IMG/VR virus record: IMGVR_UViG_3300020201_000026
Span: 1 to 54,968 of that record
DNA length: 54,968 nucleotides
Strand: one strand, 5' to 3'
DNA from: a virus
Taxonomy: Duplodnaviria; Caudoviricetes
In this document: positions 33 through 15,549 of the stretch, piece by piece
Position numbering within the stretch: the stretch's first letter is position 1
Layout: each line of letters opens with the position of its first letter
Made by a program: the position numbers and the translations under genes
Notes under the pieces: generated by a model
The model's database searches: none
The model's input: the letters and a program-made list of their open reading frames with translations, nothing else
Told to the model about the DNA's origin: nothing

Positions 33-61
33 TTGTTTGGTTTAAAGGGTTAATAAAATAT

Positions 62-517
62 CTATGAAAGATACGGGTTTACGAACAAGCTACTAAAAGT
101 AACATATGACCCGTTTTCTAACCTAAACACGACTATATCGTCTTTTACAGTTAAAAATGTCGCTTTCATTTCAACAATTTTATTCCACACGCTGTCAATC
201 ATCTCAAGCGTAGGAAAATACTTGAAAGACAACAAGTGCTTTTGTCCGTTTTGTTCGCACAAGTCCCATTCAACATCGTATTTGTGGGCATGTTGAATCT
301 TCAACACTTCCCACGAATCGCTGTGTGCCTTGTCGGTCATTCCTCTGGTGTATCTTCCAAACGGAATCAAAACTTGGGTTATTGTGTTTGCCTTAGTGTT
401 GTCATAATTTATTTCAATGACCCCATAAGGTTTTTTGTAGTGAAGTCCTCTAATGGTTATTTTTGGACAGGTTCTTTCTCCGTCCAACACCCATTTTGAA
501 CTTAATATGTTTGTCAT
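62..517 (-). CDS. hypothetical protein (151 aa)
   Basis: ORF with leader TTTAAACCAATTAAAAAATG, co-oriented with the arm; no motif recognised. Confidence 0.75.
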   Translation of the reverse strand: MTNILSSKWVLDGERTCPKITIRGLHYKKPYGVIEINYDNTKANTITQVLIPFGRYTRGMTDKAHSDSWEVLKIQHAHKYDVEWDLCEQNGQKHLLSFKYFPTLEMIDSVWNKIVEMKATFLTVKDDIVVFRLENGSYVTFSSLFVNPYLS

Positions 518-540
518 TTTTTAATTGGTTTAAATGTAAA

Positions 541-568
541 TAAGCAGTTTACACTCTTGCTTAGGAGT
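541..568 (-). ncRNA. small H-type pseudoknot, copy 1 of 3
   Basis: Minus strand ACUC-C-UAAGCA-A-GAGU-GUAAAC-UGCUUA. Stem ACUC/GAGU; loop UAAGCA pairs with UGCUUA. The stem covaries with copies at 8794 and 9133. Confidence 0.6.
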
Positions 569-626
569 TGTTTTAAACCTCTTTATAAAAGCGGTTTAAA
601 ACGTAATAGGTGAGGACAATACTATA

Positions 627-962
627 CTACCTATTACTGTATTTTCTCCAATTGTATAGTTGTGGGGCAAGTAAGTGGTAGCAATATTTAGCCACCGCCC
701 AAGTGTCTTTTTTCCAATTGTATTTTTCTTTGTCAAGTAATCTTGAACAGAACTGAGCTACATAACAGGAGTTTTCCTCCCAATCAAAGCAGTTGTTTTC
801 AATCTGCCAAGCTATTAAATCATAGCTTGAATGTGCATACAACCACGCGTATTGTTGCCCGTGTTCAATGAACGCTAAGTGGACATTTAACTTTCCATTT
901 TCAAATCGCAATCGCCATTCATCACAAGGCACTGTTGTTAGGTTTTCTAATTCAATTATCAT
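627..962 (-). CDS. hypothetical protein (111 aa)
   Basis: ORF with A-rich leader; aromatic-rich; no motif recognised. Confidence 0.75.
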   Translation of the reverse strand: MIIELENLTTVPCDEWRLRFENGKLNVHLAFIEHGQQYAWLYAHSSYDLIAWQIENNCFDWEENSCYVAQFCSRLLDKEKYNWKKDTWAVAKYCYHLLAPQLYNWRKYSNR

Positions 963-1024
963 GTTTTTGTTTTTTGGGTTAAAAATTAATAAAATAGGGC
1001 TTACTTAAAAGCAAACCCTATCAG

Positions 1025-3844: not shown

Positions 3845-3867
3845 TGTTTTATGTTTTTAAAGGTTTG

Positions 3868-3919
3868 TGAATAAGATTGGATTTGAACCAATTCTCCATA
3901 GGAGCAACCTTGCTTATTC
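3868..3919 (-). ncRNA. 52-nt tRNA-like element lacking a D-stem and anticodon loop
   Basis: Minus strand: acceptor GAAUAAG/CUUAUUC plus discriminator A; T-arm AUUGG-UUCAAAU-CCAAU; linker CAAGGUUG containing GG; mini hairpin CUCC-UAU-GGAG. Confidence 0.7.
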
Positions 3920-3924
3920 AATAA

Positions 3925-3953
3925 AAGTAGGGGCTACAAGAAGCAACCCCTTA
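3925..3953 (-). terminator. post-stop hairpin (terminator or processing site)
   Basis: Minus strand GGGGUUGC-UUCUU-GUAGCCCC followed by UACUUUU, just after the stop of 3957-4379. A similar hairpin lies at ~993-1020. Confidence 0.45.
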
Positions 3954-3956
3954 TAA

Positions 3957-4379
3957 CTAAAACATCTCTCTCCACTGTACGTGTTGAAAGACCGTTGTTT
4001 TGGTAACACTCCCGTCGGGGTTTACCAGCTCAACGGACTTTCTTTCGGTGGTTGACTGAATGCACACAAGAGAGGTATGTGCGTTTTTGTAGTGGGCATA
4101 CAAGTTAGCCCACATTGTCAGGGTAGGCTCACCTGTGCAATAAAAGTGAGTTGCCTCTTCCATTATTGCTTCTGAGACTATCCTCAGAGCAAGCAACTGT
4201 ATTTCTTCTAAAGTTGCTGTTGCTGAAATGGCTGACATTTGAGCTTGCAACTCAGGGTCTACCTCTTTCAAGGTAACAATTGAGTCTTCGTGGTCTTTGC
4301 CAAATTGCGAGTTAAATCCTTCAACTTGAGACTCTGTCAAAACGTGGCTAAACGCGACAAATAACTTCTTGTTTTTCAT
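3957..4379 (-). CDS. csx20: Csx20-like CARF-related protein, putative ring nuclease / anti-CRISPR
   Basis: N-terminal LFVAFSHVLTESQ, central G-E-P-T-L-T, and C-terminal STTERKSVE...DGSVTKTTVFQHVQWR match my recollection of the Csx20 pattern (FSHxLTxxQ ... STTxR ... K.s.F.HvrFR). Confidence 0.75.
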   Translation of the reverse strand: MKNKKLFVAFSHVLTESQVEGFNSQFGKDHEDSIVTLKEVDPELQAQMSAISATATLEEIQLLALRIVSEAIMEEATHFYCTGEPTLTMWANLYAHYKNAHTSLVCIQSTTERKSVELVNPDGSVTKTTVFQHVQWREMF

Positions 4380-4510
4380 ACTTTTATTTTTAAAGGTTTT
4401 AGCAACGATGCACCTTTATCCATTTGTTTCGCACACCCGTCCTGTGTGCTACATCTACCTCGTAGATGAGTTTATAAAGGGTTAGATACAACCTTTATAA
4501 ACTGACTTTG

Positions 4511-4542
4511 CAAAGTTAGTGAAATAACTTCGCATTTGCAAA
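4511..4542 (-). promoter_or_regulatory. Bacteroidota housekeeping-sigma promoter driving csx20-like and helicase genes
   Basis: Minus strand TTTG (4542-4539), 20-nt spacer, TAACTTTG (4518-4511): the -33/-7 consensus TTTG-N19-21-TAnnTTTG. It sits just downstream of a terminator. Confidence 0.75.
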
Positions 4543-4549
4543 CAAATTA

Positions 4550-4580
4550 AAAAGCCTTCCAATTAAATCGGAAGGCTTTT
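4550..4580. terminator. intrinsic terminator (bidirectional-looking)
   Basis: AAAAGCCTTCC-N9-GGAAGGCTTTT perfect inverted repeat 3 nt after the stop of 4584-4886. A related hairpin lies at 9710-9737. Confidence 0.75.
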
Positions 4581-4583
4581 GGG

Positions 4584-4886
4584 TTAAAATGTTGCTAAGT
4601 AAGCTCTCCTTGCCACAGATTCATTCAAGTTTAACCATACGAGGTACTCCTCGTTGGTCATGTCTTGAATGAAGATATATTTTATGCAACTTCTTGCCCC
4701 ACGAGAGCCATAATACGCTTCTTTTACTTCACTTGTGTCTTGTAGCCAATGGCTAAGGGGAGTCTCCTTAGATGTGGAGCAATTAAGCTCCAATAAATCA
4801 CTGAGATACAATTTACCTATTGACCCACTTCTGCGAATTGGGTAATTTGTTTTTTTTGTTATTTGCCCTTTTTTTGACTTTGTCAT
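4584..4886 (-). CDS. hypothetical protein (100 aa)
   Basis: ORF; N-terminus shared with the truncated gene at 1-32. Confidence 0.75.
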   Translation of the reverse strand: MTKSKKGQITKKTNYPIRRSGSIGKLYLSDLLELNCSTSKETPLSHWLQDTSEVKEAYYGSRGARSCIKYIFIQDMTNEEYLVWLNLNESVARRAYLATF

Positions 4887-4930
4887 ACGTTTAAATTGTT
4901 TAAATTGTTAATAAAAAACAGTACGTTTAA

Positions 4931-4970
4931 AAAACTCTTATCAACAGTATGTCTTGGTTGATAAGAATTT
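4931..4970 (-). terminator. hairpin with U-tail after 4975-5487
   Basis: Minus strand AAAAUUCUUAUCAAC-loop-GUUGAUAAGAGUUUUU, with a G-U wobble only on the minus strand. Confidence 0.55.
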
Positions 4971-4974
4971 TGAA

Positions 4975-5487
4975 TTATTTTGTGAGGAGAAAATGACTGT
5001 TTGCTTGTGTTTTGTATAACACAAAACAGTCATTTGCCGCTAAGGCTGTCCCTGAATTGCTCCCTTTCTCCTCAATAAAATATTGGCGAGTTTCAAAGAA
5101 CACAAGGGTATCTTCTCCTTCTTTTTGAAAGACTTGGAGCATTTGTCCTTTGTCAGTCCCTACTTGGTCTTCCCAATCCTTTCTACAAGATAAGCCCTCG
5201 TAGATATGTTGGTTTATGTGATGAAACTCACACGCCATTGGCAGTGTGATTTCTTTTCTGTTTACCAAAAATGTCTCTGGATTGATTTCAAAGGACACCT
5301 TGTATTCGTATGGACTACCCTCCGAGTAGTCGTCCTTTGCAGAAATCTCATACGGCTCTGAGTTACTCGCAAACCCAATAACTAGTTCGTCGTGATAGCT
5401 TACACTTGCCATTAAGTGCTTGCCGCCCTCAATGAGGGTCTCGCCTGTTATGGCGTTTTTTATTAAAATTTCCGTGAAGTTTGACAT
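4975..5487 (-). CDS. hypothetical acidic protein (170 aa)
   Basis: ORF; no motif recognised. Confidence 0.75.
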   Translation of the reverse strand: MSNFTEILIKNAITGETLIEGGKHLMASVSYHDELVIGFASNSEPYEISAKDDYSEGSPYEYKVSFEINPETFLVNRKEITLPMACEFHHINQHIYEGLSCRKDWEDQVGTDKGQMLQVFQKEGEDTLVFFETRQYFIEEKGSNSGTALAANDCFVLYKTQANSHFLLTK

Positions 5488-5497
5488 TGTTTTTGGA

Positions 5498-5545
5498 TTT
5501 AGGGTTTAGGGTTTAGGGTTTAGGGTTTAGGGTTTAGGGTTTAGG
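5498..5545 (+). repeat. (TTTAGGG)6 + TTTAGG tandem repeat
   Basis: Read directly; lies 10 nt upstream of the ATG of the minus-strand gene 4975-5487. Confidence 0.95.
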
Positions 5546-5610
5546 CTACGATTAAGAAAAAGGCTCTTTAATTTAATTGTAGAACCCTTTTCTAATTTAA
5601 TTTTAGCGCA

Positions 5611-5982
5611 CTATACTATTGAAAACCTGCTGATGTACAGGTTTTCTTCTTGGTCTTGGTCTTCGTCTTCAAGAACCCATTCGTGGGCTATGGTTTTGAT
5701 GCGTGGGAATCTTGCGATTCTTCCACACTCAACTCCAAAAACGTACAACTCAATAGTGCATTGAGCTGTCAAGTCTACTCTCAACCCACCATATTGGACG
5801 GCATACGCCCAGTTTATATTTGTTTCTAACAGAAACAAGGCAACCTCATATTGCACTTGTTCTGTGATTGGTGTGAACTTGTTAATCCCTCCATAAATGG
5901 AGTTTTTTAACTGTTCTACCATTTCTTCCTTTTCTTCTTGGTCAGCAGAGTTGTAATTTCTGCTGAATTCATAATTGTCCAT
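5611..5982 (-). CDS. hypothetical protein, paralog of 9747-10133
   Basis: YEVALFLLETNINWAYAVQYGGLRV aligns with WEIAFCLLKASPEWAYAVQFGKLNV. Confidence 0.8.
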   Translation of the reverse strand: MDNYEFSRNYNSADQEEKEEMVEQLKNSIYGGINKFTPITEQVQYEVALFLLETNINWAYAVQYGGLRVDLTAQCTIELYVFGVECGRIARFPRIKTIAHEWVLEDEDQDQEENLYISRFSIV

Positions 5983-6009
5983 AGTTTTTTGTTTTGTTTA
6001 ATGGTTTAA

Positions 6010-6041
6010 TAAAACAGGACTTACATCTTACGACTGCCTGT
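6010..6041 (-). repeat. 32-nt intergenic hairpin repeat, copy 1 of 3
   Basis: TAAAACAGGACTTACATCTTACGACTGCCTGT; near-identical copies at 6705-6736 and 7875-7906. Confidence 0.9.
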
Positions 6042-6050
6042 TGTTAGTTT

Positions 6051-6680
6051 TTAGATAGACTTCAGCATTTCTGCGAGTTTCTCTAACGTTTGAAGTCTTT
6101 CCGATACTACGGATTGAGCAGCGTAGATGACGGATTTCAACGCACTTGGCAGGGAGGTTACGGCATGAGGGGTCATGTCATAGTCCCCGAATAAAACACC
6201 AAGAGCAACCTCGTAAGGGAGCTTTGTAAAGTCTTCCCCTCCAAAACCGTTAAAGATGTTAGCCAAAGATACTCGCTCCATTTCTTCTCCATTGATTTTT
6301 GCAGAGGTTACTATTTCCCCTGAAACTATCCTTTCAGCAACCGTTTTGCAAACGAATGCAAAAAGGTTGAGTTCACCTCCATAACAATCACTGTCGTCTG
6401 CCAAATGGTTTTCAATAGCAACATTATTAATGGTTATTGTTGCTACTTCTACTACGCTGTACTTTTCCCCCCAAAAACTTGCTTGTGCGAGACTTGCAAG
6501 CATGGGTTGTCCGTTAGGGTTGAATAACCCCTCTATAATAGTTTGCGACAAAACTACATCACTGTTTATTGCCGCTTGTGTCTTGGTCTTTGCCATTAAA
6601 ACAAAAGCTGTTGCTTCTGCTTCGGTGGGGAAGAAGTACTCATTTGTTTTTTGAGTACGTTGGTTTTTGATAGTGAACAT
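6051..6680 (-). CDS. hypothetical protein, tandem paralog of 6740-7360
   Basis: Aligns end to end with the neighbouring gene (MFxIKN..KTNEYFF, NGxPMxAxL, LPYxVAxGVLFGDY, RLQTLExLAxMLKSI). Confidence 0.85.
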   Translation of the reverse strand: MFTIKNQRTQKTNEYFFPTEAEATAFVLMAKTKTQAAINSDVVLSQTIIEGLFNPNGQPMLASLAQASFWGEKYSVVEVATITINNVAIENHLADDSDCYGGELNLFAFVCKTVAERIVSGEIVTSAKINGEEMERVSLANIFNGFGGEDFTKLPYEVALGVLFGDYDMTPHAVTSLPSALKSVIYAAQSVVSERLQTLEKLAEMLKSI

Positions 6681-6704
6681 TTTTTTACTTGTTTAAAAGG
6701 TTAA

Positions 6705-6736
6705 TAAAACAGGACTTACATCTTGCGACTGCCTGT
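6705..6736 (-). repeat. 32-nt intergenic hairpin repeat, copy 2 of 3
   Basis: TAAAACAGGACTTACATCTTGCGACTGCCTGT. Confidence 0.9.
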
Positions 6737-6739
6737 GTG

Positions 6740-7360
6740 TTAAATAGATTTTAGCATTTTTGCTAAATCTTCTAACGTTTGAAGTCTTTGCGATACTACT
6801 CTTTGAGCGGCGTAAAAGATTGATTCCAATGCGCTTTTCAATGCCATTGCTGGGTGAGATTTTGTTTTGTAATCTCCAAACAAAACCCCACAGGCAACGC
6901 TGTAAGGAAGCTTTGTGGGGTCTTCCTCCCCAAAGTCGTTAAAGATACTTATGAGCGAAACCCGCTCTTTTTCCTCTCCGTTCACTTGAACGGAAATGAC
7001 ACTCTCCCCCAATATTATCATTTCTTGAACTTTTTTTGAAATAAAATCAGAGAGCTTTCCCCCCAAAAATTCGCCACTGTCGTCCGCCAAGTCGTTGTCA
7101 ATGGCAACTCCATTGATAAGCACCTTTGCACTTTCAATGACTTCGTATTTTTGCTCCAAAAACGAAGCTTTTTCAAGGAACGCCGACATTGGCTTTCCAT
7201 TAGGGTGGAACACCCCTTGCACTATTTCACTCACGTCCCCTCTGTCAATGACAGATTGTGTTTTTTCTTTTGCCATTACGAGAAAAGCGGTAGCTTCTTC
7301 GGCAGTTGCAAAAAAATACTCGTTGGTCTTTCCTGACCGTTTGTTTTTTATACTAAACAT
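6740..7360 (-). CDS. hypothetical protein, tandem paralog of 6051-6680
   Basis: Aligns end to end with 6051-6680. Confidence 0.85.
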   Translation of the reverse strand: MFSIKNKRSGKTNEYFFATAEEATAFLVMAKEKTQSVIDRGDVSEIVQGVFHPNGKPMSAFLEKASFLEQKYEVIESAKVLINGVAIDNDLADDSGEFLGGKLSDFISKKVQEMIILGESVISVQVNGEEKERVSLISIFNDFGEEDPTKLPYSVACGVLFGDYKTKSHPAMALKSALESIFYAAQRVVSQRLQTLEDLAKMLKSI

Positions 7361-7412
7361 AGTGTTTTTTTGTTTAAAAGGCTTAATAAAATAGCACGTT
7401 TATCTTAAACGT

Positions 7413-7866
7413 ACAAATAAACACTAAAACCACGAGCAATCTTGGCTCTCTGGTTGCAACACCAAACTCACACACGGTGAGGAACTATGTGTGGTCTTAG
7501 GGTTTAAGGTAGGTTTGAGCCTATAACTTTCTTGCTGTTACACAAGCCTGCTCAAACAGGATTAAGTTTTGCTAAACTTACAAAATAACATTGGACAACT
7601 TTCATTTAGCTAAATGAAGGCTTATGTTGTCCCAATGCCTCTTATCGGTCAATTACAAAATGATAGATTCTAATTCTTGACCTTTTACAGTCCCCCGTTC
7701 ATTACTCGGGCTATTTCGGAGAATAGCAAAAAACAGACGAGGCTTATGAAGCATTTTCGTGTCTGTCTTACTCCTTACTCAGTTCTAACGTATCTATCAC
7801 AGTTAGAACATATATGCACACCTGTCTTACAGGATTCAACGCTTGCATAATGCGTTATTTATTTGT
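7413..7866 (-). ncRNA. candidate large (~450 nt) structured ncRNA
   Basis: No ORF >=60 aa; termini complementary (ACAAATAAA/TTTATTTGT); at least 8 internal hairpins; two candidate loop-loop pseudoknots. Confidence 0.6.
7445..7488 (-). repeat. 44-nt repeat (two-hairpin / three-way junction module), copy 1 of 2
   Basis: Matches 8571-8614 at 43 of 44 positions; the single difference is in a hairpin loop. Confidence 0.9.
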
Positions 7867-7874
7867 TTATGAGA

Positions 7875-7906
7875 TAAAACAGGACTTACATCTTGCGAAT
7901 GCCTGT
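7875..7906 (-). repeat. 32-nt intergenic hairpin repeat, copy 3 of 3
   Basis: TAAAACAGGACTTACATCTTGCGAATGCCTGT. Confidence 0.9.
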
Positions 7907-7908
7907 TG

Positions 7909-8433
7909 TTACTTGATTTGGTGGGTTTTACACCACCCTGATTTTTTTATTGCCAAAAGGCGTAAGTAATCGGAAGAGTAGGGGTTGTCATATCCTGACG
8001 ACCACTGGTCGTCATACCCTGAGGCCCAATGAGAGTTCCTCGTGAAAGAGAAACCCAATGCCAAACTCTTTAGAATCTTTAAATGTTCCTCTCTGTCAAA
8101 AGAGGTTATTACCTGTAAGCGGTCGCAATGCAGTGAGATTTCAGCCTCCAATTTGCTGGTGCAGGAGCTTCCTTTCCAGCTATGACCCCAGCTAATCATG
8201 CCACTCCATTTTTTAAATCGTTCCGCCCATTTCTTGCAGAACGGTTCCCAGCCAGTGGCTTTGGTCTTCCCAGAAACACAAACAGTCGTCCCCGACGATA
8301 GGTTGTACGTAATGGTAACCTTGTACCGCTCTTTGTTGCGGTATAAAGTTGCAATATGATATTCAATGTACGAGATTGAATTTCGTACATTGACAGTCGC
8401 TACGGGCGTTGCAAATAATTGGATTGCTATCAT
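7909..8433 (-). CDS. hypothetical protein (174 aa, Trp/Ser-rich)
   Basis: ORF with AACAAAAAATG leader. Confidence 0.75.
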   Translation of the reverse strand: MIAIQLFATPVATVNVRNSISYIEYHIATLYRNKERYKVTITYNLSSGTTVCVSGKTKATGWEPFCKKWAERFKKWSGMISWGHSWKGSSCTSKLEAEISLHCDRLQVITSFDREEHLKILKSLALGFSFTRNSHWASGYDDQWSSGYDNPYSSDYLRLLAIKKSGWCKTHQIK

Positions 8434-8570
8434 TTTTTGTTCTGCTTACTCAATGCAGAAACACTCTGTCTTTGTCCCGAACGGGAAACAGGTGTTAGCA
8501 GTTTCTCGTAAATTCTACGAGGAAGATTTAGAGTTTTCTCTCTTTTGTTATCTACCGTACAATAATCACA

Positions 8571-8614
8571 GCTCTCTGGTTGCAACACCAAACTCACACC
8601 CGGTGAGGAACTAT
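8571..8614 (-). repeat. 44-nt repeat, copy 2 of 2
   Basis: GCTCTCTGGTTGCAACACCAAACTCACACCCGGTGAGGAACTAT. Confidence 0.9.
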
Positions 8615-8712
8615 ACTATACACTGCAAAAATGCAACATCACACCTAAGCCGAAGCTCTCCCTTTAGATTTTTCAGGGATTAAGGTGCCAACCTCCTAAG
8701 AGGTATTTAAAT

Positions 8713-8821
8713 ACGTCTTTCTTGTTCTTTCACTGTCGCATTAACCCCCGTAGGAGAAAAGACGTTGCAACAGCGAGAGGTTTTTCCTCTATCAAAGCAG
8801 TTTATAGTCCTGCTTAGGACT
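8713..8821 (-). ncRNA. ~110-nt structured repeat (small pseudoknot + hairpin + nested pseudoknot), copy 1 of 2
   Basis: Direct repeat of 9050-9160 with compensatory changes in two stems. Confidence 0.7.
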
Positions 8822-8835
8822 TGCTCTTATCGGGG

Positions 8836-9021
8836 TTAATCCCAATAAGAGCTATGACCCCCTTTTCCATACGCTGCCATACGACAGCCGGGATTTCTTT
8901 TTATTGCAGCCCTTGAGGTCTTTGCAGGGCTTTTCTTTTTGGGACGACAAGCTTTTCTCCTGCCCATTGCTTGACGAGGGTGAAAGTCATTCTTGTCTTC
9001 CACAATCTCGTGGATTTTCAT
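8836..9021 (-). CDS. small basic hypothetical protein (61 aa)
   Basis: K/R-rich ORF with the arm-typical leader TAACCTTAAAAC...ATG, flanked by the 110-nt repeats. Confidence 0.6.
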   Translation of the reverse strand: MKIHEIVEDKNDFHPRQAMGRRKACRPKKKSPAKTSRAAIKRNPGCRMAAYGKGGHSSYWD

Positions 9022-9049
9022 GATGTCTTGTGTTTTAAGGTTAAATAAT

Positions 9050-9160
9050 GCACTTTTCTTGTTCTTTCACTGTCGCATTAACTTCCGTAGAAGAAAAAGT
9101 GCTGCAACAATTAGAGGTTTATTTCCCCTATCAAAGCAGTTTATAGTCCTGCTTAGGACT
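9050..9160 (-). ncRNA. ~110-nt structured repeat, copy 2 of 2
   Basis: Direct repeat of 8713-8821 with compensatory stem changes. Confidence 0.7.
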
Positions 9161-9174
9161 TTTGACGATTAATC

Positions 9175-9606
9175 CTACAGGGCTTTAACCCAGTACTCCA
9201 TTGAACTTAACCATGTAACACACATCATTGGACTAAGTTCCTCCGCCAGCGATGTCCAATCAGGGGCATACTGATTGTCCCCTTTTGTGGGGTAGCCCAG
9301 TTGGGCATACCCGTACAAATATGTCCACATTTGAAGTCGCACGTCCTCAAAAGAGCAGTAAAGGTGGGTTGCCCCCACTTTTGTTGCCTCTTTCACGATT
9401 TCAAGAGCCAAAGCTTTCACTTGTACAAGTGCGAGCTTGGCACTTTCTGTGTCAAATCCTATCATGGTTGCAATTTCTGTACCCTCGTACCCTTGAGCAT
9501 CTTCATGGTGGCAACCATTGATATGGCTGCCGTACTGTAAGCGGAACATGTCCTCTTGGCGAGGGGTCAATACAGTTTGAGACGCTACGAATAATATCTT
9601 TTTCAT
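9175..9606 (-). CDS. divergent paralog of the Csx20-like protein
   Basis: LFVASQTVLTPRQ vs LFVAFSHVLTESQ; LALEIVKEA..GATHLYC vs LALRIVSEA..EATHFYC; LQMWTYLY vs LTMWANLY. The C-terminal STT/HV segment is lost. Confidence 0.7.
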   Translation of the reverse strand: MKKILFVASQTVLTPRQEDMFRLQYGSHINGCHHEDAQGYEGTEIATMIGFDTESAKLALVQVKALALEIVKEATKVGATHLYCSFEDVRLQMWTYLYGYAQLGYPTKGDNQYAPDWTSLAEELSPMMCVTWLSSMEYWVKAL

Positions 9607-9629
9607 ATTTTTATTTATTTAAGGTTTAT

Positions 9630-9707
9630 TTTCTTGCGAACCACCGCTTGCTCTATGTTTCCATAGACTTGTGAGACTCTCGTATTCCGAAGAACTTAGA
9701 GGTAGTT
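9630..9707 (-). ncRNA. GAAA-tetraloop / 11-nt-receptor RNA element, copy 1 of 2
   Basis: Receptor variant UCUAAG/UACGA capped by UUCG; hairpin UCUAUG-GAAA-CAUAGA; closing stem AACUAC/GUGGUU. Aligns without gaps to 10160-10237. Confidence 0.7.
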
Positions 9708-9709
9708 GT

Positions 9710-9737
9710 AAAAGCCCCCCAGTTAATCGGAGGGCTT
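9710..9737 (-). terminator. probable intrinsic terminator
   Basis: AAGCCC...GGGCUUUU hairpin after the stop of 9747-10133; resembles 4550-4580. Confidence 0.6.
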
Positions 9738-9746
9738 GTTGTTACT

Positions 9747-10133
9747 TTATTTGAGGAAGAATGTGTTTTCTACTACTTCGTCGCCGAAGTAATCTCGTTC
9801 GTCCCCTGTGTAAGGGACGGTTTTAGAGGTACAACCAATTGACGTTGTAGGAAACTTAATGTCCCCTAAATCCACTCCGCAAGTTGACAGCGAAACTACT
9901 CCGTTCTTTCCTATATACACGTTCAATTTGCCGAATTGAACAGCATACGCCCATTCTGGCGACGCTTTCAATAGGCAAAACGCTATTTCCCACTTGATGT
10001 CGTAGGATATTATGTCAAAATGTCCGTTTGCCATTTTCAGCGATTTGGCAAGGCTTTTAGCCATCTTGCCTCTTTCTGTAACTGTGCCGTATACGAAACG
10101 GCTTGTGTATACGTCTTTTTTTGAAACTTTCAT
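9747..10133 (-). CDS. hypothetical protein, paralog of 5611-5982
   Basis: Shared WAYAVQ(F/Y)G core. Confidence 0.8.
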   Translation of the reverse strand: MKVSKKDVYTSRFVYGTVTERGKMAKSLAKSLKMANGHFDIISYDIKWEIAFCLLKASPEWAYAVQFGKLNVYIGKNGVVSLSTCGVDLGDIKFPTTSIGCTSKTVPYTGDERDYFGDEVVENTFFLK

Positions 10134-10159
10134 AATACTTATTTATTTATTGAGTTTAA

Positions 10160-10237
10160 TTTCTTGCGAACTACCGCTTGCATTACTTTTCAGTAACCTT
10201 GTGAGACTCCCATATCCTACTGGACTTAGGGGAAACC
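10160..10237 (-). ncRNA. GAAA-tetraloop / 11-nt-receptor RNA element, copy 2 of 2
   Basis: Canonical receptor CCUAAG/UAUGG; hairpin GUUACU-GAAA-AGUAAU. Confidence 0.7.
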
Positions 10238-10293
10238 GATTGTATATGTACCTCAACGCCGAAATCCCAATGACGGATTCGTGTGAGAAACAA

Positions 10294-10389
10294 GAAATAG
10301 TTACATACTGTATGGGTATGTAGCTATTTCATTAGTTACGTGTACGGTTAAACACGTAACATATACCCTAAACTTTTAATTTAGGGTAT
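10294..10389. repeat. three consecutive inverted repeats
   Basis: GAAATAGTTACATAC/GTATGTAGCTATTTC, GTTACGTGT/ACACGTAAC and ATACCCTAAA/TTTAGGGTAT. Confidence 0.85.
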
Positions 10390-10394
10390 TGTTT

Positions 10395-11063
10395 TTATTT
10401 TGGCACACTTGCCGTGTTTGCTAATTTAGCTTGTTCTTTTGCTAATTTAGCTTGTTCTTTTGCCTCATCTTTGGTTTTTTCTGTGTTGTTTTCTTTTGTA
10501 ACCGCAATAGGGGCAATAAAGCCTCCTATTGCCCAAAATAGGCTCTTTGATGACTTTTCTTGCCACACTGTGTTCTCCCGTACAGTTGCAAGTTGTTCGT
10601 GGTAGCTAATACCAACCTTCATTAATGAAGGAATAGCGTTAGCAATGTTCAAATACTTTGTACCTGAACTTGTTGTAACCAAAACGGTCTCCATGTCGCA
10701 TGTTACACCCTCTAATAGGGTAGCAACATTTTTGATTGAAACGTTGATAAGTTCGTTGCCTCTTGTGAAGCAACCAACCGTGAGTGAAAGTACTGCAACC
10801 GCAGTAAAATCACTCTTAACGAGCGCGTTGTTTGCAACCTCTATGGTAGCAATTGATAGTTTCTTTTCTATCAATTTTGTGTCATACGCATTGTCTACTT
10901 CACTGTGTGTGAAGTTAGATAAGACACTGCCTTCTAAGAGGTAGTGCCTTTTAATGGGTATGATAAACTCCGACGTGGCACGTAGTGCCAAATTAGAGGG
11001 TATTAATCTATCAACCATTGGTATAGGGCTATTTTGTAAACGGTTGCACGGTTGCAGTCGCAT
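10395..11063 (-). CDS. hypothetical protein, first gene of the left arm; start uncertain (ATG 11063, ATG 11018 or TTG 10874)
   Basis: Open frame with a C-terminal 21-bp tandem repeat (AKEQAKL x2). The 5' part is hairpin-rich, and TTG 10874 has the A-rich context typical of this arm. Confidence 0.6.
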   Translation of the reverse strand: MRLQPCNRLQNSPIPMVDRLIPSNLALRATSEFIIPIKRHYLLEGSVLSNFTHSEVDNAYDTKLIEKKLSIATIEVANNALVKSDFTAVAVLSLTVGCFTRGNELINVSIKNVATLLEGVTCDMETVLVTTSSGTKYLNIANAIPSLMKVGISYHEQLATVRENTVWQEKSSKSLFWAIGGFIAPIAVTKENNTEKTKDEAKEQAKLAKEQAKLANTASVPK

Positions 11064-11668
11064 ATAGCCAAAGGCAGGAGGGGTGAATAGACATCAGACT
11101 CAATACTCCTTCTTAAAAAAATATTTTTTTTGCTGGGGTCAGTTGTCATTTTGCCTTGTGTGTTAGTTTGCTGTGTGTTAGTTTTACTGTAGAGGGGGGT
11201 ATTTGAGGGGGTGTTGTTTTATGTTTTTCTTTGGGTGGTTTCTTTGGCTATGGTATTATAGTTATAAGCTCTATCAAGGGGCAAGCCCCTTAAAAAGTTG
11301 TTTTTGGAGTACCTGATCCAGTCCTTTTTTGGGGAGAGTGTAGTATCTTTTGTTTAATGTGGAGATAGACACGTTCCACTACAATATAAATAAGGGTATG
11401 CTTTTACTGCAAAATGTTTATGCGGATTATCAGCCAGAGCTTCGTATCAGAACCTTATGAAAGAGGATGCGAAGATGTTTATGCCTTTAGCACTGAAGGA
11501 TTACCGCAAGAGGGGAGTTTCAACCGCCCATTTTGTTGCCCTTTTATCTTAATACCTTTCGTTGCCAAAAGGTAACCGAGAATCTAAAAAAGAATCGTTA
11601 TATATATAACTTATTTTTGACATAAAAGGTTCAGTTATTTTGAAAATAAATTAAAAATATTTTTTATT

Positions 11669-11700
11669 TTTGGTAGTATCGTTTTGTTGTGTTATATTTG
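11669..11700 (+). promoter_or_regulatory. Bacteroidota-type promoter for the tRNA / right arm
   Basis: TTTG (11669-72), 20-nt spacer, TATATTTG (11693-700), 8 nt before the tRNA. Confidence 0.75.
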
Positions 11701-11708
11701 CACAACAA

Positions 11709-11781
11709 GTCCTTATAGCTTAACTGGAAAAGCGTTACCCTTCTAAGGTAAGGAGTACAAGTTCAAATCTTGTTAGGGACA
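11709..11781 (+). tRNA. tRNA-Arg(TCT)
   Basis: Acceptor GTCCTTA/TAGGGAC+A; D-arm GCTT/AAGC; anticodon arm TTACC-CTTCTAA-GGTAA; T-arm ACAAG-TTCAAAT-CTTGT; CCA not encoded. Confidence 0.92.
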
Positions 11782-11796
11782 CTAATAGATTATAAT

Positions 11797-12552
11797 ATGA
11801 AAAGGAAGGACGATGTTTCGTTTGATGCTGTTACGCATTCCTATTTCAACACGGATACGGGAGTGGAGTACACTCCTGTTACGTCTTGGATAGCGAAGCA
11901 CAAGAGGGAGTTTGTTGCAGATGAGAGCAAGACCAGAGCAACTCAGAGGAAGCTTGGCTTAACTCACGAGGAGGTTCTTTCTATGTGGGAGGACAAGAAG
12001 AACAAGGCAGGACAGAGGGGGTCGTATATCCACAACACTATTGAGGACTACTTGGTTTCTGGTAGGGTAGACATGGGGTATAATCCTTTAAACAAGGACA
12101 TACCTTTTACTTATTTAAAAATGCTTAGAAGGAAAAGAGCTAAACTGTGGATAGAGGATATGCTCTGGTACAAGCAGAGGGGGATAGCTGGTCAGAGTGA
12201 TTTGGTGTTGGAGTACAAGAGGCACGTTGAAATAACAGACTGGAAGACCAATGAGAAAGAAACGGAGGCACTATCAAAAGTAATGTGGTACACTGAGAAC
12301 TTCAAGGAGTTGTTTGTAGACCTTCCCCAGACTTCTTTAAACGAGTATGTTATACAGCTTGTGTTATATGGCATAATGGCGAGTTATTATTACGGCAAGC
12401 CTTGTAGGAAGCATACGGTGGTACACATCTTTAACGGGTATAGGGAGATACACCTTGACAAGTTGAAAATGGAATACTACAATGGGCGAGGGCAAAAGAT
12501 AAAAACAACAGTGGTAGCATACGTCAAGAAGAAACTAAAACCTTTATTTTAA
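11797..12552 (+). CDS. PD-(D/E)XK (RecB/Cas4-like) nuclease
   Basis: Motifs GSYIH..IE, IAGQSDLV, ITDWKT, Y..QL..Y. ATG 11797 chosen because TTG 11770 lies inside the tRNA. Confidence 0.85.
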   Translation: MKRKDDVSFDAVTHSYFNTDTGVEYTPVTSWIAKHKREFVADESKTRATQRKLGLTHEEVLSMWEDKKNKAGQRGSYIHNTIEDYLVSGRVDMGYNPLNKDIPFTYLKMLRRKRAKLWIEDMLWYKQRGIAGQSDLVLEYKRHVEITDWKTNEKETEALSKVMWYTENFKELFVDLPQTSLNEYVIQLVLYGIMASYYYGKPCRKHTVVHIFNGYREIHLDKLKMEYYNGRGQKIKTTVVAYVKKKLKPLF

Positions 12553-12554
12553 AA

Positions 12555-12761
12555 ATGACAGAAGAAAACAAAACAGAAGATATGCAAGAGGAGTACCAGT
12601 TTAACTGGAAAGTTGCTTCTTTGCCTAAGCCTATTGGCAAGATACAAAAGAACAAGTTAGAAATTGCAAGATTGAAAAACACAATACTTAAACAGAGCAA
12701 GGTTATACAAACGCTTTGGGATTATAGGAAGGCGACACAAAACAAAACAAAACAAATATGA
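12555..12761 (+). CDS. small hypothetical protein
   Basis: ORF packed between neighbours; ATGA overlap with the next gene. Confidence 0.7.
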   Translation: MTEENKTEDMQEEYQFNWKVASLPKPIGKIQKNKLEIARLKNTILKQSKVIQTLWDYRKATQNKTKQI

Positions 12762-13780
12762 CTCACCCAAAAGAAATAAACAAGCAGGTATTAGAGTCTT
12801 GGCTAAACGGTTATAAAGGCATGCTGACGGTGTTAGCTAAGAACATACTGTATCACTACGACATAGAAGACACAGGAGACAATCGGGAATACCTCCGAAA
12901 GAGATTGTCTGCTATTAGGCATAGCCCAGTGTTTTCCCCTCCTTTTGAAGGGGAGGTTACAGGATTCACAGAGCCTTTCTTAGCTGCTGTTGCTTCTTCC
13001 CCTGTTGCCCCTGTATTGACTTCTATTCAAGCCTCTGAGATAATAGAGCGTTTGAATAGGGAGTCTTACAGAAGAGAGTTGAAGGTCATATATTTAGTAA
13101 TAGGGGACATACACGCCCCTTTTACTTCTCCTTTTTACTTTAAGCATTGTCAGGAGGTAAAAGAGAAGTACACTATTATAGGGGACGCTTTGTACGGAAA
13201 GCACAACTGGCGATTGCGGATTGTGTTTATAGGGGACATCATTGACGGGCAGGCTATCAGTATGCACGACCACAACCCCAACCTTCAATCGGCAGGGGAC
13301 GAGATGACAGAAGCAAAGGCATCTCTCCACAAGTGGACAACCGAGTTCCCTGTTGCTTATGTAACAGAGGGCAATCACGACTCCTTGTATAAAAGGCAAG
13401 TGTCAAAAGCTGGACTACCACAAGAGGCATTCTCAGGGCTTTCCCGTATGTTGGGCTTGCCTAAAGACTGGCTAATAACAGATGAGCTTATAGACTCTCA
13501 GTACAACATAGTGTTTACGCACGGTACGAAACTAAGCAAATCAACTATCGCGGTAGCTGCTATGAAACGCCAGTACAGTCATGTATGCGGACACCAGCAC
13601 AGCATTTGCAACATAAGCTATATAACTGAAAAGCTGTTTACTTCGTTTGTAGGGTGTGGCATAGACTTCTCTTCCTCCGCGTTTGACTATGCCAAAGGGG
13701 GTGCTAACAATCCTATTTTGAGTTGTCTGGTTATTGTGGACGGCGTACCTGTTTTAGAAACTATGCGAGTAGTAGAGTAA
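12758..13780 (+). CDS. calcineurin-like metallophosphoesterase
   Basis: Motifs GDIH, GDIID, GNHD, THG, GHQH in canonical order. Confidence 0.9.
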   Translation: MTHPKEINKQVLESWLNGYKGMLTVLAKNILYHYDIEDTGDNREYLRKRLSAIRHSPVFSPPFEGEVTGFTEPFLAAVASSPVAPVLTSIQASEIIERLNRESYRRELKVIYLVIGDIHAPFTSPFYFKHCQEVKEKYTIIGDALYGKHNWRLRIVFIGDIIDGQAISMHDHNPNLQSAGDEMTEAKASLHKWTTEFPVAYVTEGNHDSLYKRQVSKAGLPQEAFSGLSRMLGLPKDWLITDELIDSQYNIVFTHGTKLSKSTIAVAAMKRQYSHVCGHQHSICNISYITEKLFTSFVGCGIDFSSSAFDYAKGGANNPILSCLVIVDGVPVLETMRVVE

Positions 13781-14118
13781 TGGGAACAGAGGGGGTTCTT
13801 ACCATAGAGAACAAGCAGGGGGGACAAAGGAAGTGGGAGGCTTACATTGTTACGGCTAACTACTATGTGGGAGAGCTGAATCTAAACCTTGTAAACTTCC
13901 CATTGTTGTATGGTATTTCGCGAGAGGAGGTCATAGACAAAACAATAGACAGGCTTGTGGTGTTAAAGAAGGAAATAGCTATGCTGACGGCGGTTTGTAA
14001 AACAAAAAAGAAAACAATACAGCAAGAGGAAAGGTTAAAAGAGCGAGTCTTGCAACGTAATATAAAAAAACAACTAAGAAAAAATGAAAACAACACAGGC
14101 ATTTCTAAACAGCTTTAA
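13780..14118 (+). CDS. hypothetical protein
   Basis: TAATG stop/start coupling at 13778-13782; basic coiled C-terminus. Confidence 0.65.
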   Translation: MGTEGVLTIENKQGGQRKWEAYIVTANYYVGELNLNLVNFPLLYGISREEVIDKTIDRLVVLKKEIAMLTAVCKTKKKTIQQEERLKERVLQRNIKKQLRKNENNTGISKQL

Positions 14119-14779
14119 CAGCCCTATCACGCCTCTTGTAGTAGACGGTGTAATGGGAGCTAAGTCCAATGAGCAGCTCGGCATAGCCTTAAACAAGCTT
14201 TCTATTGAGTTTAGCAAAAGGGGCTGGGTATGGGACAAGGCGTTCAACTTTATTGGAATAAGAACAGACAACATATTTGACGACACTTTTGCGGATTGGT
14301 TTGTGCTTACTATTGGCACAACGCTTGTGGCTGTTCCTGCCTCTACTGTGGCAGGCGTTACCTCTATATGGAAGTATATGAGCTTGTGGGTCAATGGCAG
14401 GCAGGGCGTAGGCACAATAGCAGAGAACATACAAATTGACTACCTGCTTGTAGAGCCAAGAGGGGACGTTTGGACGGGTTGGACGGGCAATCAAGGCTTT
14501 CTTTACCAAGACAAGGCGATAGCAAAAGTGTATAGAGGGGCAATTAAAGACGGGAACAAGTGGTACACTGACAGGACTAACCCTGAAACGAACAATGTTG
14601 GCTCTGGCTTCAATGTTCACACGTGGGCAGGCTTTAGCCTATGGCAAGTAAGAAACCTAAGCGAGGGCTGCCAAGTAACAAGGGCTGAGTTTTGGGAGAT
14701 TATCTTCCCTTTGTTTGTGAAATACGCAAGGGTCGTATCTGGTAGTAAGAGAATCACGTATAGCCTAATCCAGTTGTGA
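14084..14779 (+). CDS. putative endolysin (peptidoglycan-binding-like N-terminus + L,D-transpeptidase/YkuD-like His...SxGC domain)
   Basis: LVVDGVMG (PG-binding-like), FNFIGIR and FNVH...LSEGCQV. Confidence 0.6.
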   Translation: MKTTQAFLNSFNSPITPLVVDGVMGAKSNEQLGIALNKLSIEFSKRGWVWDKAFNFIGIRTDNIFDDTFADWFVLTIGTTLVAVPASTVAGVTSIWKYMSLWVNGRQGVGTIAENIQIDYLLVEPRGDVWTGWTGNQGFLYQDKAIAKVYRGAIKDGNKWYTDRTNPETNNVGSGFNVHTWAGFSLWQVRNLSEGCQVTRAEFWEIIFPLFVKYARVVSGSKRITYSLIQL

Positions 14780-14832
14780 GAGTATAGACAAGGCAGTTAT
14801 CAAAGACGTATCAGAAAAAAAAATAAAATTTT

Positions 14833-15066
14833 ATGATTGACATATCCAACATCGTTGAGGGCTGGTACAACACAATAAACAAAGCTGGACTTTCTTTAGA
14901 CAAACAAAGGATAGCAGAGGACAGAATAAAAACTTGTGAAGAGTGCGAGTACATGAGGATAGGGGTGTTTTACACTGACTGTGCCTTGTGTGGTTGCAAG
15001 CTACCTCAAAAGACGTATAGCTACAAGAAATCAAACGTATGCCCAGAAAACAAATGGAAAGAGTAA
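14833..15066 (+). CDS. small Zn-binding protein
   Basis: CxxC...CxxCGC...CPxxKW pattern. Confidence 0.75.
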   Translation: MIDISNIVEGWYNTINKAGLSLDKQRIAEDRIKTCEECEYMRIGVFYTDCALCGCKLPQKTYSYKKSNVCPENKWKE

Positions 15067-15074
15067 GATAAAAT

Positions 15075-15548
15075 ATGATAGATTACATAAATGAAAAAGT
15101 GCAGATAGTACCGCAAGGAAAGCATTTCTTTAAGGACGTTCCTAAGAAAGAGCTACCAGACTTGTTGTACTATTTGTACCATTATTATAGCCCCAACAGC
15201 ATATATGTTGGAATGATGCCCAGCGAGAGGAAAGAAGAAATATTAAAAACAACCTCGCTTGACCTTGAAAAGCACAAGGCGTTTGTTAAGAGCTACGAAG
15301 AAGTTACTATGTCCCCGACAGAGAAGCTGGCTATGGCTATAAACGAAAGAATAGAAAAGATAATGCTTGAAGTCAGAACCTCAGAAGTGGATATCAAGGA
15401 CTTAGAAAAAGAGGGCAAGAATCTAAAAGCCTTAACGGAGATATTTAAACTACAAGACCTACTATCAGACAGACTGTCAAAAGAAAACAGGCAAGTAGAA
15501 GGAAAAGGGGCAAAAGCAATAGGCTACTTTGAGAATATAATACTATAA
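15075..15548 (+). CDS. hypothetical protein, possible terminase small subunit
   Basis: Helical 157-aa protein immediately upstream of TerL; positional inference only. Confidence 0.45.
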   Translation: MIDYINEKVQIVPQGKHFFKDVPKKELPDLLYYLYHYYSPNSIYVGMMPSERKEEILKTTSLDLEKHKAFVKSYEEVTMSPTEKLAMAINERIEKIMLEVRTSEVDIKDLEKEGKNLKALTEIFKLQDLLSDRLSKENRQVEGKGAKAIGYFENIIL

Positions 15549-15549
15549 T

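Follow-up and report, generated by a model that had tools for sequence, protein, structure and literature searches.

A three-hairpin leader RNA with a candidate GAAA tetraloop and 11-nt receptor precedes unrelated small genes in a crAss-like phage lineage

Two short noncoding segments of a 54,968-nt phage sequence (the window, i.e., the whole stretch of DNA that was analyzed) resemble each other closely and stand directly before two small genes that are unrelated to one another. An earlier note on this DNA had proposed a duplicated leader RNA of approximately 75 nt, with a GAAA tetraloop and its 11-nt receptor, as a riboswitch or ribozyme candidate. Alignment of positions 9630-9707 with 10160-10237 was indeed free of gaps, with 56 of 78 positions identical, and 60 of 84 were identical over 9626-9709 and 10156-10239, the span of the model used here. 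Because the genes in this region lie on the minus strand, the leader RNA reads as the reverse complement of the positions that note gives. The elements of the two copies are as follows.

9626-9709, minus strand: motif copy 1 (84-nt model; alignment and covariance model, 109.2 bits)
9679-9701, minus strand: copy 1, P1 receptor hairpin
9668-9678, minus strand: copy 1, J1/2
9652-9667, minus strand: copy 1, P2, with GAAA at 9658-9661
9648-9651, minus strand: copy 1, J2/3
9636-9647, minus strand: copy 1, P3
9626-9635, minus strand: copy 1, tail
10156-10239, minus strand: motif copy 2 (84-nt model; alignment and covariance model, 109.5 bits)
10209-10231, minus strand: copy 2, P1 with the canonical 11-nt receptor
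10198-10208, minus strand: copy 2, J1/2
10182-10197, minus strand: copy 2, P2, with GAAA at 10188-10191
10178-10181, minus strand: copy 2, J2/3
10166-10177, minus strand: copy 2, P3
10156-10165, minus strand: copy 2, tail

Most details of the earlier description were borne out. The receptor halves are canonical in copy 2 and a U-A / C variant in copy 1, the P2 stems differ in five of six pairs while retaining both pairing and the GAAA loop, and the last A of the conserved tail lies 23 nt (copy 1) or 26 nt (copy 2) from the ATG, where approximately 25 nt had been given; from the end of the model, the distances are 19 and 22 nt. The claim that the unpaired blocks are invariant has to be amended: they are conserved, but two of them can pair as the 4-bp hairpin P3, and J1/2 varies at two of its 11 columns in the wider family. 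The joint J1/2...J2/3 pattern occurred twice in the window, versus 0.00 expected from 100 shuffles. With filters off, the covariance model matched only copies 1 and 2 in the whole window, and the next-best match (14.2 bits) was the antisense of copy 1. Furthermore, the 24 differences between the copies were unevenly placed: the stems, L1 and flanks, together 38 columns, held 21 of them, and the 46 remaining columns held three (Fisher p = 1.2e-6). These results confirm a conserved, structured leader element that is present in two copies and is a sense-strand RNA.

The fold consists of three hairpins: P1 carrying the 11-nt tetraloop receptor, P2 capped by GAAA, and an invariant P3. It was assessed on eight distinct sequences, all of which come from strains of one phage lineage and one habitat type. 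Standard pairs were found in 136 of 136 pair cells, and seven of the 17 pairs (two in P1 and five in P2) had changed on both sides. The observed covariation score was reached by none of 500 shuffles, slid controls were only 31-50% paired, and RNAalifold, unprompted, predicted the identical structure. The pair cells included 21 G-U and no A-C combinations, which places the fold on the sense strand. Variation was distributed unevenly: 10 of 12 columns varied in P2 and all four in L1, compared with two of 11 in J1/2 and none in J2/3 (of four), the GAAA loop (of four) or P3 (of eight), so that the stems, L1 and flanks differed in variability from the remaining columns (Fisher p = 9.6e-6). In P3 and the tail, neither strand showed any change despite the drift of the other stems, which favors recognition by sequence. 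However, the motif copies also recombine with each other, as seen from hybrids in contig L030 and run X5; given this and their shared lineage, the eight sequences are not independent, and the junction invariance may come partly from gene conversion.

Three additional pairings were considered and rejected. A long-range helix between columns 5-9 and 65-69 was 92.5% paired, with no both-side change and with uninformative shuffles. Pairing of P3-loop column 68 with the start-region AAACC/AAACU, noticed by eye, is possible in six of eight sequences and absent from two, and showed no real covariation. A closing helix suggested by an alignment to the Moco riboswitch model was present only in the upstream context of the copy-2 type.

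The tetraloop and receptor were examined for the variation expected of a tertiary contact. GAAA was present in all eight sequences, as was the receptor core C2-G10, U3-A8, A4-A5 (columns 11-14, 27 and 29). Three of the eight have canonical receptor halves, and within the receptor the eight differ from one another only at positions 1/11, 7 and 9. In the available part of the study by Shin et al. (10.1101/2022.12.15.518780), changes at 9 and 1/11 cost less than changes in the C2-G10, U3-A8, A4-A5 core, and a Watson-Crick pair at receptor 6/7 is rated deleterious; one copy in contig L031 carries a pair of this deleterious type. Independent variants in Logan contigs (A46-U55 to G-C; C28 to U) conform to the overall pattern of variation. 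The bare receptor pattern is not rare in itself (one found versus 0.43 expected; 10 versus 9.72 for a loose form), so the case for the receptor rests on its conservation and not on the pattern count. The sequence features of the GAAA/11-nt receptor module, namely a GAAA loop and a receptor internal loop with a C-G, U-A handle and an AA platform core, were found. Altogether, the pattern of variation supports the reading that the loop and receptor vary as a functional tertiary pair should, and the motif is very probably a functional RNA folded through this contact. The lower part of P1 has only 3 bp, versus 6 bp in P2, and docking would require the junction to adjust the register.

Beyond the window, seven further full copies (98-109.5 bits) and one partial copy were found in five metagenome contigs, and all known copies belong to strains of one crAss-like phage lineage from microbial mats. 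Two of the seven stretches returned by the metagenome scan (L028 and L029) were chance matches. Exact-pattern scans of IMG/VR, a collection that may omit the window's own or near records, gave chance matches in G+C-rich coding DNA or none, and a scan of a genome-contig collection gave four chance matches, none with a match to the model. Searches with the two downstream proteins, P0001 and P0002, revealed no further loci; P0001 had seven weak relatives and P0002 a single cluster of near-identical proteins. The terminase alone as query returned one identical short contig. A terminase alignment search returned 13 IMG/VR loci, 12 of them at no more than 32% identity, and the absence of covariance-model matches from these 13 records carries no weight; closer terminase relatives, at 50-60% identity, are in Logan and ENA. 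In the limited literature collection searched, no description of such a motif in phages was found.

A cmscan search of Rfam, which the earlier note had proposed as a check, matched no characterized family at gathering threshold. In relaxed scans (E up to 10) of positions 9000-11000 and of two 131-nt stretches, the best match was the Moco riboswitch (RF01055), which aligned to copy 2 only, at 13.8 bits and E 0.49 where the gathering threshold is 36; copy 1 did not match this model at all. GEMM (RF01051) was matched neither at gathering threshold nor at E up to 10 in these scans, and no small self-cleaving ribozyme family was matched in the same stretches at E up to 10, in a library that presumably includes the hammerhead, twister, twister-sister, pistol, hatchet and HDV-like models.

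To relate the motif to the genes behind it, we considered the following neighboring features.

9175-9606, minus strand: P0001, 143 aa, gene behind copy 1; no Pfam/NCBIfam family
9607-9625, minus strand: A/U-rich stretch from copy 1 to the ATG of ORF 9175-9606, comprising spacer and start region; mostly unpaired in the prediction
9710-9737, minus strand: terminator-like G+C hairpin with U-tract, belonging to the gene upstream; the Phe_leader model aligned here through its terminator portion
9747-10133, minus strand: P0002, 128 aa, gene behind copy 2; no family
10134-10155, minus strand: A/U-rich stretch from copy 2 to the ATG of ORF 9747-10133, comprising spacer and start region
10240-10394, minus strand: conserved upstream module of copy 2 (terminator-like hairpin, two more hairpins and linker); nearly identical in four contigs

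P0001 is a paralog of the product of 3957-4379 (37% over 107 aa), which has a sub-threshold Csx20 match, and P0002, unrelated to P0001, is a paralog of the product of 5611-5982 (34% over 77 aa). Across the family, the motif stands before six unrelated ORFan families, with no Pfam or PHROG match and no coherent gene set among them, and the end of the model is always 12-24 nt from the ATG. The start regions were predicted to be mostly unpaired in all eight copies (mean unpaired probability 0.54-0.84), and neither a terminator nor a conserved start-sequestering helix that could serve as an expression platform was found among these copies. No sigma-70-like promoter adjoins either copy, and TAnnTTTG, the Bacteroidota promoter motif, was absent from both strands of 8144-11178. 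A gap of 8 nt (9702-9709) separates the terminator-like hairpin at 9710-9737 from P1 of copy 1; copy 1 would therefore be transcribed only by read-through, or if this hairpin serves in processing or stability.

The motif is also the boundary of a gene cassette in a hypervariable region, a point absent from the earlier note. In three of three pairs compared in this way, ungapped identity dropped from 95-100% to random within approximately 20 nt past the motif, and loose ends of Logan contigs at 9624 and 10154 correspond to the same break. In L033 and L034, core phage genes were 99.6-100% identical while the flanking accessory proteins were 38-72% identical, and the motif was kept. The motif occurs in three upstream and six downstream contexts.

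The motif is best read as a cis-acting structured RNA module that is new, occurs narrowly, and forms part of the leaders of small accessory genes in a crAss-like phage. We infer that it is transcribed together with the leftward gene array and then folds into the three hairpins. The P2 GAAA would dock into the 11-nt receptor of P1 and clamp the helices side by side, and docking would fix the invariant J1/2, J2/3, P3 and tail as one defined surface; judged by model columns and spacers, P3 and the tail occupy a region some 12-45 nt ahead of the start codon. This surface might be read by a partner acting in trans, such as an RNA-binding protein of the phage or the host, or else the 30S subunit. 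The hosts are apparently Bacteroidota, which are not known to rely on Shine-Dalgarno pairing. The partner would govern translation and/or stability for any gene placed behind the module, and so bring unrelated cassettes under common control, while at the DNA level the approximately 84 bp of identity may provide portable homology for cassette exchange. The partner-binding operator mechanism specifically is proposed tentatively, as a possibility still short of an even chance.

Among the alternatives, it is unlikely that the motif is a small self-cleaving ribozyme or a host RNase site, which would cut a polycistronic early transcript between cistrons and leave the downstream RNA with a defined, compactly folded 5' end. 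Such an activity would fit the approximately 30 invariant non-helical or P3 nucleotides around drifting stems, a core clamped by a tertiary contact, and unrelated genes behind a motif without an expression platform. Also in favor of it, the motif always follows a hairpin or pseudoknot at the 3' end of the preceding gene and comes before the next start, and other intergenic gaps of the same array contain further structured modules. However, the Rfam ribozyme models gave no match in the relaxed scans described above, and the distribution of the motif is very narrow. To our knowledge, none of the known small ribozyme classes is so narrowly distributed.

We consider it equally improbable that the motif is a constitutive, partner-free fold, which insulates the A/U-rich start region and/or blocks 5'-end-dependent decay, whatever the cassette. 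The mostly unpaired start regions in all eight predictions, the portability of the motif among its upstream and downstream contexts, and its location at the cassette boundary are consistent with this explanation. A passive fold, however, needs no invariance of nine of 11 J1/2 columns, all four J2/3 columns and both strands of P3 while P2 changes five of its six pairs.

A small-molecule riboswitch, with the junction as ligand pocket and, for example, a cyclic-nucleotide immune signal as ligand, is less probable still. The size and architecture of the motif resemble those of the tetraloop-receptor-clamped aptamers GEMM/c-di-GMP-I and Moco, the junctions are conserved, and the weak Moco alignment has the same module order. 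Against this, the Moco match is absent for copy 1, the genes behind the motif fall into six ORFan families that are unrelated and without Pfam/PHROG match, neither a terminator nor an alternative helix sequestering the start was found, and the sole alternative helix found (columns 5-9 with 65-69) shows no covariation. The earlier note had pointed to a Csx20-like gene behind one copy and, as a speculation, to sensing of a cyclic-nucleotide immune signal. P0001 is a weak, distant Csx20-like paralog, as stated, but it represents just one of the six downstream families, and the better Csx20-like gene, 3957-4379, has a different leader that lacks the motif; on these grounds, the cyclic-nucleotide idea found no support.

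N4-like phages have hairpin-type promoters for the phage's own RNA polymerase, and the GAAA/11-nt receptor pair depends on 2'-OH contacts of RNA. The weakest alternative, a DNA-level element whose hairpins form in single-stranded DNA as a phage RNA polymerase promoter or recombination site, would accord with the lack of a host-type promoter near the copies, with the break of homology at the motif edge, with the terminator directly before copy 1 (the layout of T4-type PeSL in the available part of PMC2839356) and with the crAss-like virion RNA polymerase gp66, described in the accessible portion of 10.1101/2020.03.07.982082 as preferring single-stranded templates, with early promoters unknown, but it is most improbable, as the template strand would carry C-A mismatches in 21 of 136 pair cells, the 84-nt conserved span far exceeds known promoters, there are just two copies in 55 kb, and the RNA-dependent conservation pattern of the GAAA/11-nt receptor would have to be a coincidence.

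We know of very few natural RNAs below 100 nt with a canonical GAAA/11-nt receptor clamp, namely GEMM-I and Moco, both of them aptamers that sense ligands. A third small fold of this type, phage-borne and placed before unrelated genes, thus qualifies well as a candidate new class of functional RNA, whether operator, ribozyme or sensor. In the hypervariable accessory region of the crAss-like phage, genes are swapped behind a constant RNA leader, and a constant leader would explain how new ORFans could be expressed immediately in hosts that apparently do not use Shine-Dalgarno sequences. As far as the available part of the phi14:2 study (10.1101/2020.03.07.982082) describes them, early transcripts of that phage lack a common motif, and abundant early non-coding RNAs are of unknown function. 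It is rather doubtful, though less so than the alternatives weighed above, that the motif represents a small RNA of a new class, catalytic or sensing, i.e., a self-cleaving ribozyme or riboswitch-like sensor of approximately 75 nt with its core clamped by the GAAA/11-nt receptor, and that it acts as a universal "cistron start" switch of crAss-like phages before swappable, possibly anti-defense, genes. If true, this would point to a layer of control over early genes that is based on RNA, in a very abundant phage order.

Among known systems, the Moco RNA is described, in the part of Regulski et al. 2008 (PMC2408646) that was available, with P4 ending in a GNRA tetraloop and P2 carrying the receptor. 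Like the Moco model (RF01055), the motif has a hairpin whose internal bulge forms the 11-nt receptor and which is capped by 4 bp and a tetraloop, followed by a GAAA-capped hairpin and then a small hairpin, and the cmscan alignment covers exactly these three hairpins of copy 2. Unlike Moco, its stems are of 3+4 and 6 bp versus 11+4 and 11 in the Moco consensus, it has no conserved closing P1 (the 5' flanks of the three upstream contexts share no closing helix), its junction letters do not match the Moco junction consensus, and no molybdenum-related genes are nearby, six ORFan families lying downstream instead. GEMM/c-di-GMP-I, in the available text of Weinberg et al. 2007 (PMC1950547), has a GAAA tetraloop clamp, with an 11-nt receptor in about half of its members, and shares with the motif an adjacent, GAAA-clamped pair of hairpins in a leader. 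The order of modules is reversed, as the earlier note recognized: the tetraloop hairpin comes first in GEMM and the receptor hairpin in the motif, the linker is AAA in the former and 11 nt in the latter, and both expression platforms and a coherent gene set go with GEMM (PMC1950547) but were not found with the motif. The GAAA/11-nt receptor itself, as in the group I intron P4-P6 and tectoRNA, is a building block and not a family; the motif places it in approximately 75 nt, with 3 bp below the receptor.

Finally, the motif may be compared with the PeSL cassettes of T4-type phages, on which Comeau et al. 2014 is reportedly a further paper. PeSL, as described in the accessible part of Arbiol et al. 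2010 (PMC2839356), combine a sigma-70-type promoter with a terminator. Like them, the motif is a short conserved noncoding module repeated among small ORFans of a hyperplastic region in which recombination swaps genes (PMC2839356), and it lies at recombination joints, as judged from the three of three breakpoint pairs, the Logan joints and the divergence of accessory from core genes. Unlike in PeSL, no sigma-70-type promoter was found in it, and what is conserved is an RNA of three hairpins that covaries and has a predicted tertiary contact.

The two minus-strand leaders of the window, copy 1 (before ORF 9175-9606) and copy 2 (before ORF 9747-10133), aligned without gaps, with 60 of 84 positions identical (9709-9626 against 10239-10156) and 56 of 78 over the narrower limits of the earlier note, which had described a duplicated leader RNA with a GAAA tetraloop and its 11-nt receptor. 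The canonical receptor halves it had read in copy 2, the variant halves in copy 1, and the different P2 stems under the same GAAA loop were all present in the sequence. The joint linker pattern occurred twice in the window versus 0.00 expected, and a whole-window scan, with filters off, using a covariance model built from the two copies (R1) returned only these copies at ~109 bits, the next match scoring 14.2 bits. The 24 differences between them were distributed unevenly, 21 falling in the 38 columns of the stems, P1 loop and 5' flank and 3 in the other 46 (p = 1.2e-6), and because of this concentration a decaying duplicate is unlikely.

The window represents part of a crAss-like phage genome, with a major capsid protein that matched Pfam Crass_capsid (E 3.5e-45) and with a large terminase, a portal and a head protein identified by PHROGs. 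The stored record of 54,968 bases has an estimated completeness of 33%, and the sequencing runs containing it are labeled as microbial mat metagenomes. The motif sits in a leftward array of small genes (1 to ~11,700), the majority of them without any family, and the RNA is therefore the minus strand. Spacers in this array are rich in hairpins, and three are ORF-free and hairpin-dense: 7361-7908 (548 nt), 8434-8835 (402 nt) and 11064-11699 (636 nt). A second repeated intergenic module consists of three terminator-like hairpins that share one loop and are almost identical (6681-6739, 5983-6050 and ~7880-7908, minus strand); they precede ORFs 5611-5982, 6051-6680 and 6740-7360. Seven tandem copies of a telomere-like CCCTAAA-type 7-nt repeat (~5495-5550, minus strand) lie just 5' of the start of ORF 4975-5487. 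Furthermore, many leftward genes carry an AAACC-W-W-T-W-AA element 10-25 nt 5' of their start codons, and the tail of the motif merges into a variant of it. Variants stand before most leftward genes; the exact matches, 4 versus 1.16 expected and all on the minus strand, are as follows.

521-531, minus strand, AAACC-W-W-T-W-AA element
3856-3866, minus strand, AAACC-W-W-T-W-AA element
4389-4399, minus strand, AAACC-W-W-T-W-AA element
5997-6007, minus strand, AAACC-W-W-T-W-AA element

Exact-pattern scans of IMG/VR gave chance matches only, as did a looser pattern in GTDB genomes (4 matches); searches with the proteins downstream of the motif recovered no relatives' loci, and 13 IMG/VR records found by terminase alignment (12 at ≤32% identity) contained no model match. 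A scan of JGI metagenomes with one pattern from the 3' half of the motif yielded 7 stretches, and 5 of these (contigs L030-L034) contained 1 partial copy and 7 full ones, which scored 98-109.5 bits. The partial copy (L032:181-236, minus strand; 28.5 bits with R1 and 33.5 bits with a further model, R2) comprises the P1 receptor hairpin and the first J1/2 bases, followed by an unrelated structured stretch, so the receptor hairpin can also serve as a module on its own. We also aligned Logan contigs from 4 other mat runs on 9100-10400. Here the motif reappeared in other arrangements, with contigs matching to 9624 or 10154 and then continuing into unrelated sequence, and one contig joined 9693 to 10224 as a hybrid of both copies. 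Among the variants, 9682 G>A changed the bulged C of the receptor to the canonical U, 9670 T>G affected a single position of J1/2, and 10185 A>G together with 10194 T>C converted P2 columns 46/55 from A-U to G-C. Within the searches made, the motif was confined to mat samples and, there, to strains of a single phage lineage (6 contigs and those from the 4 runs).

The fold was assessed in a gapless alignment of 8 distinct sequences and 84 columns (A5), in which the hairpins are placed as follows.

Columns 9-11/29-31 and 15-18/23-26, P1, carrying the receptor
Columns 43-48/53-58, P2, capped by the GAAA loop
Columns 63-66/71-74, P3

Standard pairs occupied 136 of 136 pair cells, and both sides changed in 7 of 17 pairs (2 in P1 and 5 of 6 in P2). 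RNAalifold produced exactly the same three-hairpin structure from the alignment alone, and sliding the partners by 1-3 columns reduced pairing to 31-50% and left no double changes. None of 500 shuffles matched the observed covariation score or double-change count, in rows that are not independent because they come from closely related strains and the copies recombine among themselves; our own count from pair types gave 4 P2 variants and ~6 separate compensatory events. P3 is invariant and is therefore without covariation support either way.

The GAAA loop was kept in all 8 sequences on a closing pair that varies (G-C, U-A or U-G). Within the receptor, the C2-G10 pair, U3-A8 handle and A4-A5 platform were invariant, and variation was confined to pair 1/11 (C-G, U-A, U-G), position 9 (5 U, 3 C) and position 7 (a C in one sequence out of 8). 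According to the available part of the study by Shin et al. (10.1101/2022.12.15.518780), changing position 9 or 1/11 weakens GAAA binding less than changing the receptor core does: effects stay below 2 kcal/mol at the flipped-out U9 and are moderate for other Watson-Crick pairs at G11-C1, as against more than 2.5 kcal/mol for core changes. A Watson-Crick pair at 6/7 is described there as deleterious, so the L031 copy, which has one, may dock less well. Since the receptor pattern taken alone is not rare, the case for the contact rests on this conservation pattern, which suggests that the GAAA loop docks into the receptor.

The 9 full copies precede 6 unrelated protein families (BLASTP, E 1e-3), none with a Pfam or PHROG match, and the model ends 12-24 nt before the ATG. 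Contig pairs with a common upstream side (3 of 3) showed ungapped identity of 95-100% through the motif, which became random within ~20 nt after it. Terminase, exonuclease and phosphoesterase of L033 and L034 were 99.6-100% identical to those of window 1-17412, whereas behind the motif, strains with such core genes had accessory proteins of 38-72% identity or wholly different genes, which indicates a sharply bounded hyperplastic region. In the same comparison, neighboring leftward accessory genes were 38-92% identical or replaced.

Three contexts were seen upstream: a terminator-like hairpin at a distance of 8 nt, a ~155-nt module, and a small pseudoknot-like element abutting P1. The ~155-nt module (10240-10394, minus strand, 5' of copy 2) consists of a linker and three hairpins. 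It hardly differs among 4 contigs (window, L030, L033, L034), its conservation exceeding that of the stems in the motif 3' of it, and it may hold the promoter or belong to a longer RNA. The ~28-nt pseudoknot-like hairpin, whose loop is able to pair with the bases 3' of it, recurs after stop codons (9133-9160, 8794-8821 and 541-568, minus strand), and at 3 places in L031 and L032 it abuts P1 with few bases between. Cassettes are thus bounded 5' by the motif and 3' by this hairpin.

The earlier note had called the linkers invariant. They are identical in both window copies, but in A5, J1/2 varies at 2 of 11 columns; J2/3 varies at 0 of 4 and P3 at 0 of 8, versus 10 of 12 for P2, which favors specific recognition or catalysis. 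We tentatively prefer a leader acting in cis, in which a partner, either a protein or the ribosome, would read P3 and the clamped junction near the standby region. A self-cleavage or processing element is rather unlikely, and we give a similarly low rating to a passive insulator or stabilizer. A small-ligand riboswitch is improbable: there is no coherent gene set downstream, prediction leaves the start region largely unpaired in each of 8 copies (mean unpaired probability 0.54-0.84), and no competing helix is conserved, the single candidate being without covariation. The speculated sensing of a cyclic-nucleotide immune signal found no support, and the Csx20 link is thin. The 140-aa product of 3957-4379 (minus strand) matched NCBIfam CAS_Csx20 below threshold (E 3.2e-10, 40.4 bits; cutoff 70); the product of ORF 9175-9606 is its 37%-identical paralog without a Csx20 match of its own, and 3957-4379, the stronger Csx20-like gene of the two, stands behind another leader. 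A promoter or recombination site acting on DNA is the least probable reading; A5 contains 21 G-U and 0 A-C cells, so the fold is good on the sense strand and the other strand would carry 21 mismatches. The Bacteroidota -7 element, in the form we assume for it, was absent from both strands of 8144-11178; 4511-4542 (minus strand), before 3957-4379, is a good match to what we take to be the Bacteroidota promoter/-7 pattern.

At gathering thresholds, Rfam recognized only a tRNA (11709-11781), and a 2-kb scan with E up to 10 gave no match to the motif on its own strand. Scanned as a bare 131-nt sequence, copy 2 weakly matched one family, the Moco riboswitch (E 0.49, 13.8 bits against a threshold of 36), with exactly the receptor hairpin, GAAA hairpin and third hairpin aligned in that order; the same scan of copy 1 gave only a meaningless greA-leader match. 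None of the literature searched describes a motif of this kind in phages. Altogether, the motif represents an RNA family that combines known modules and is not catalogued.

In phi14:2, according to the accessible part of its description (10.1101/2020.03.07.982082), two early intergenic regions of unknown function out-transcribe most genes, early transcripts from the virion polymerase have no common upstream motif in the data presented there, and this polymerase favors single-stranded templates. In GEMM (c-di-GMP-I) RNAs, as the available portion of PMC1950547 has it, the tetraloop hairpin comes first; the motif shares the idea of a two-hairpin clamp and is not a member. It is likewise not a member of the Moco RNAs, in which the receptor lies in P2 and the tetraloop on P4 (PMC2408646, in the part available), although its modules follow the same order. 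Unlike the PeSL cassettes of T4-type phages, as far as the accessible text on them extends (PMC2839356), the motif has no sigma-70-like site adjoining it, and it shows the same boundary behavior as those cassettes.
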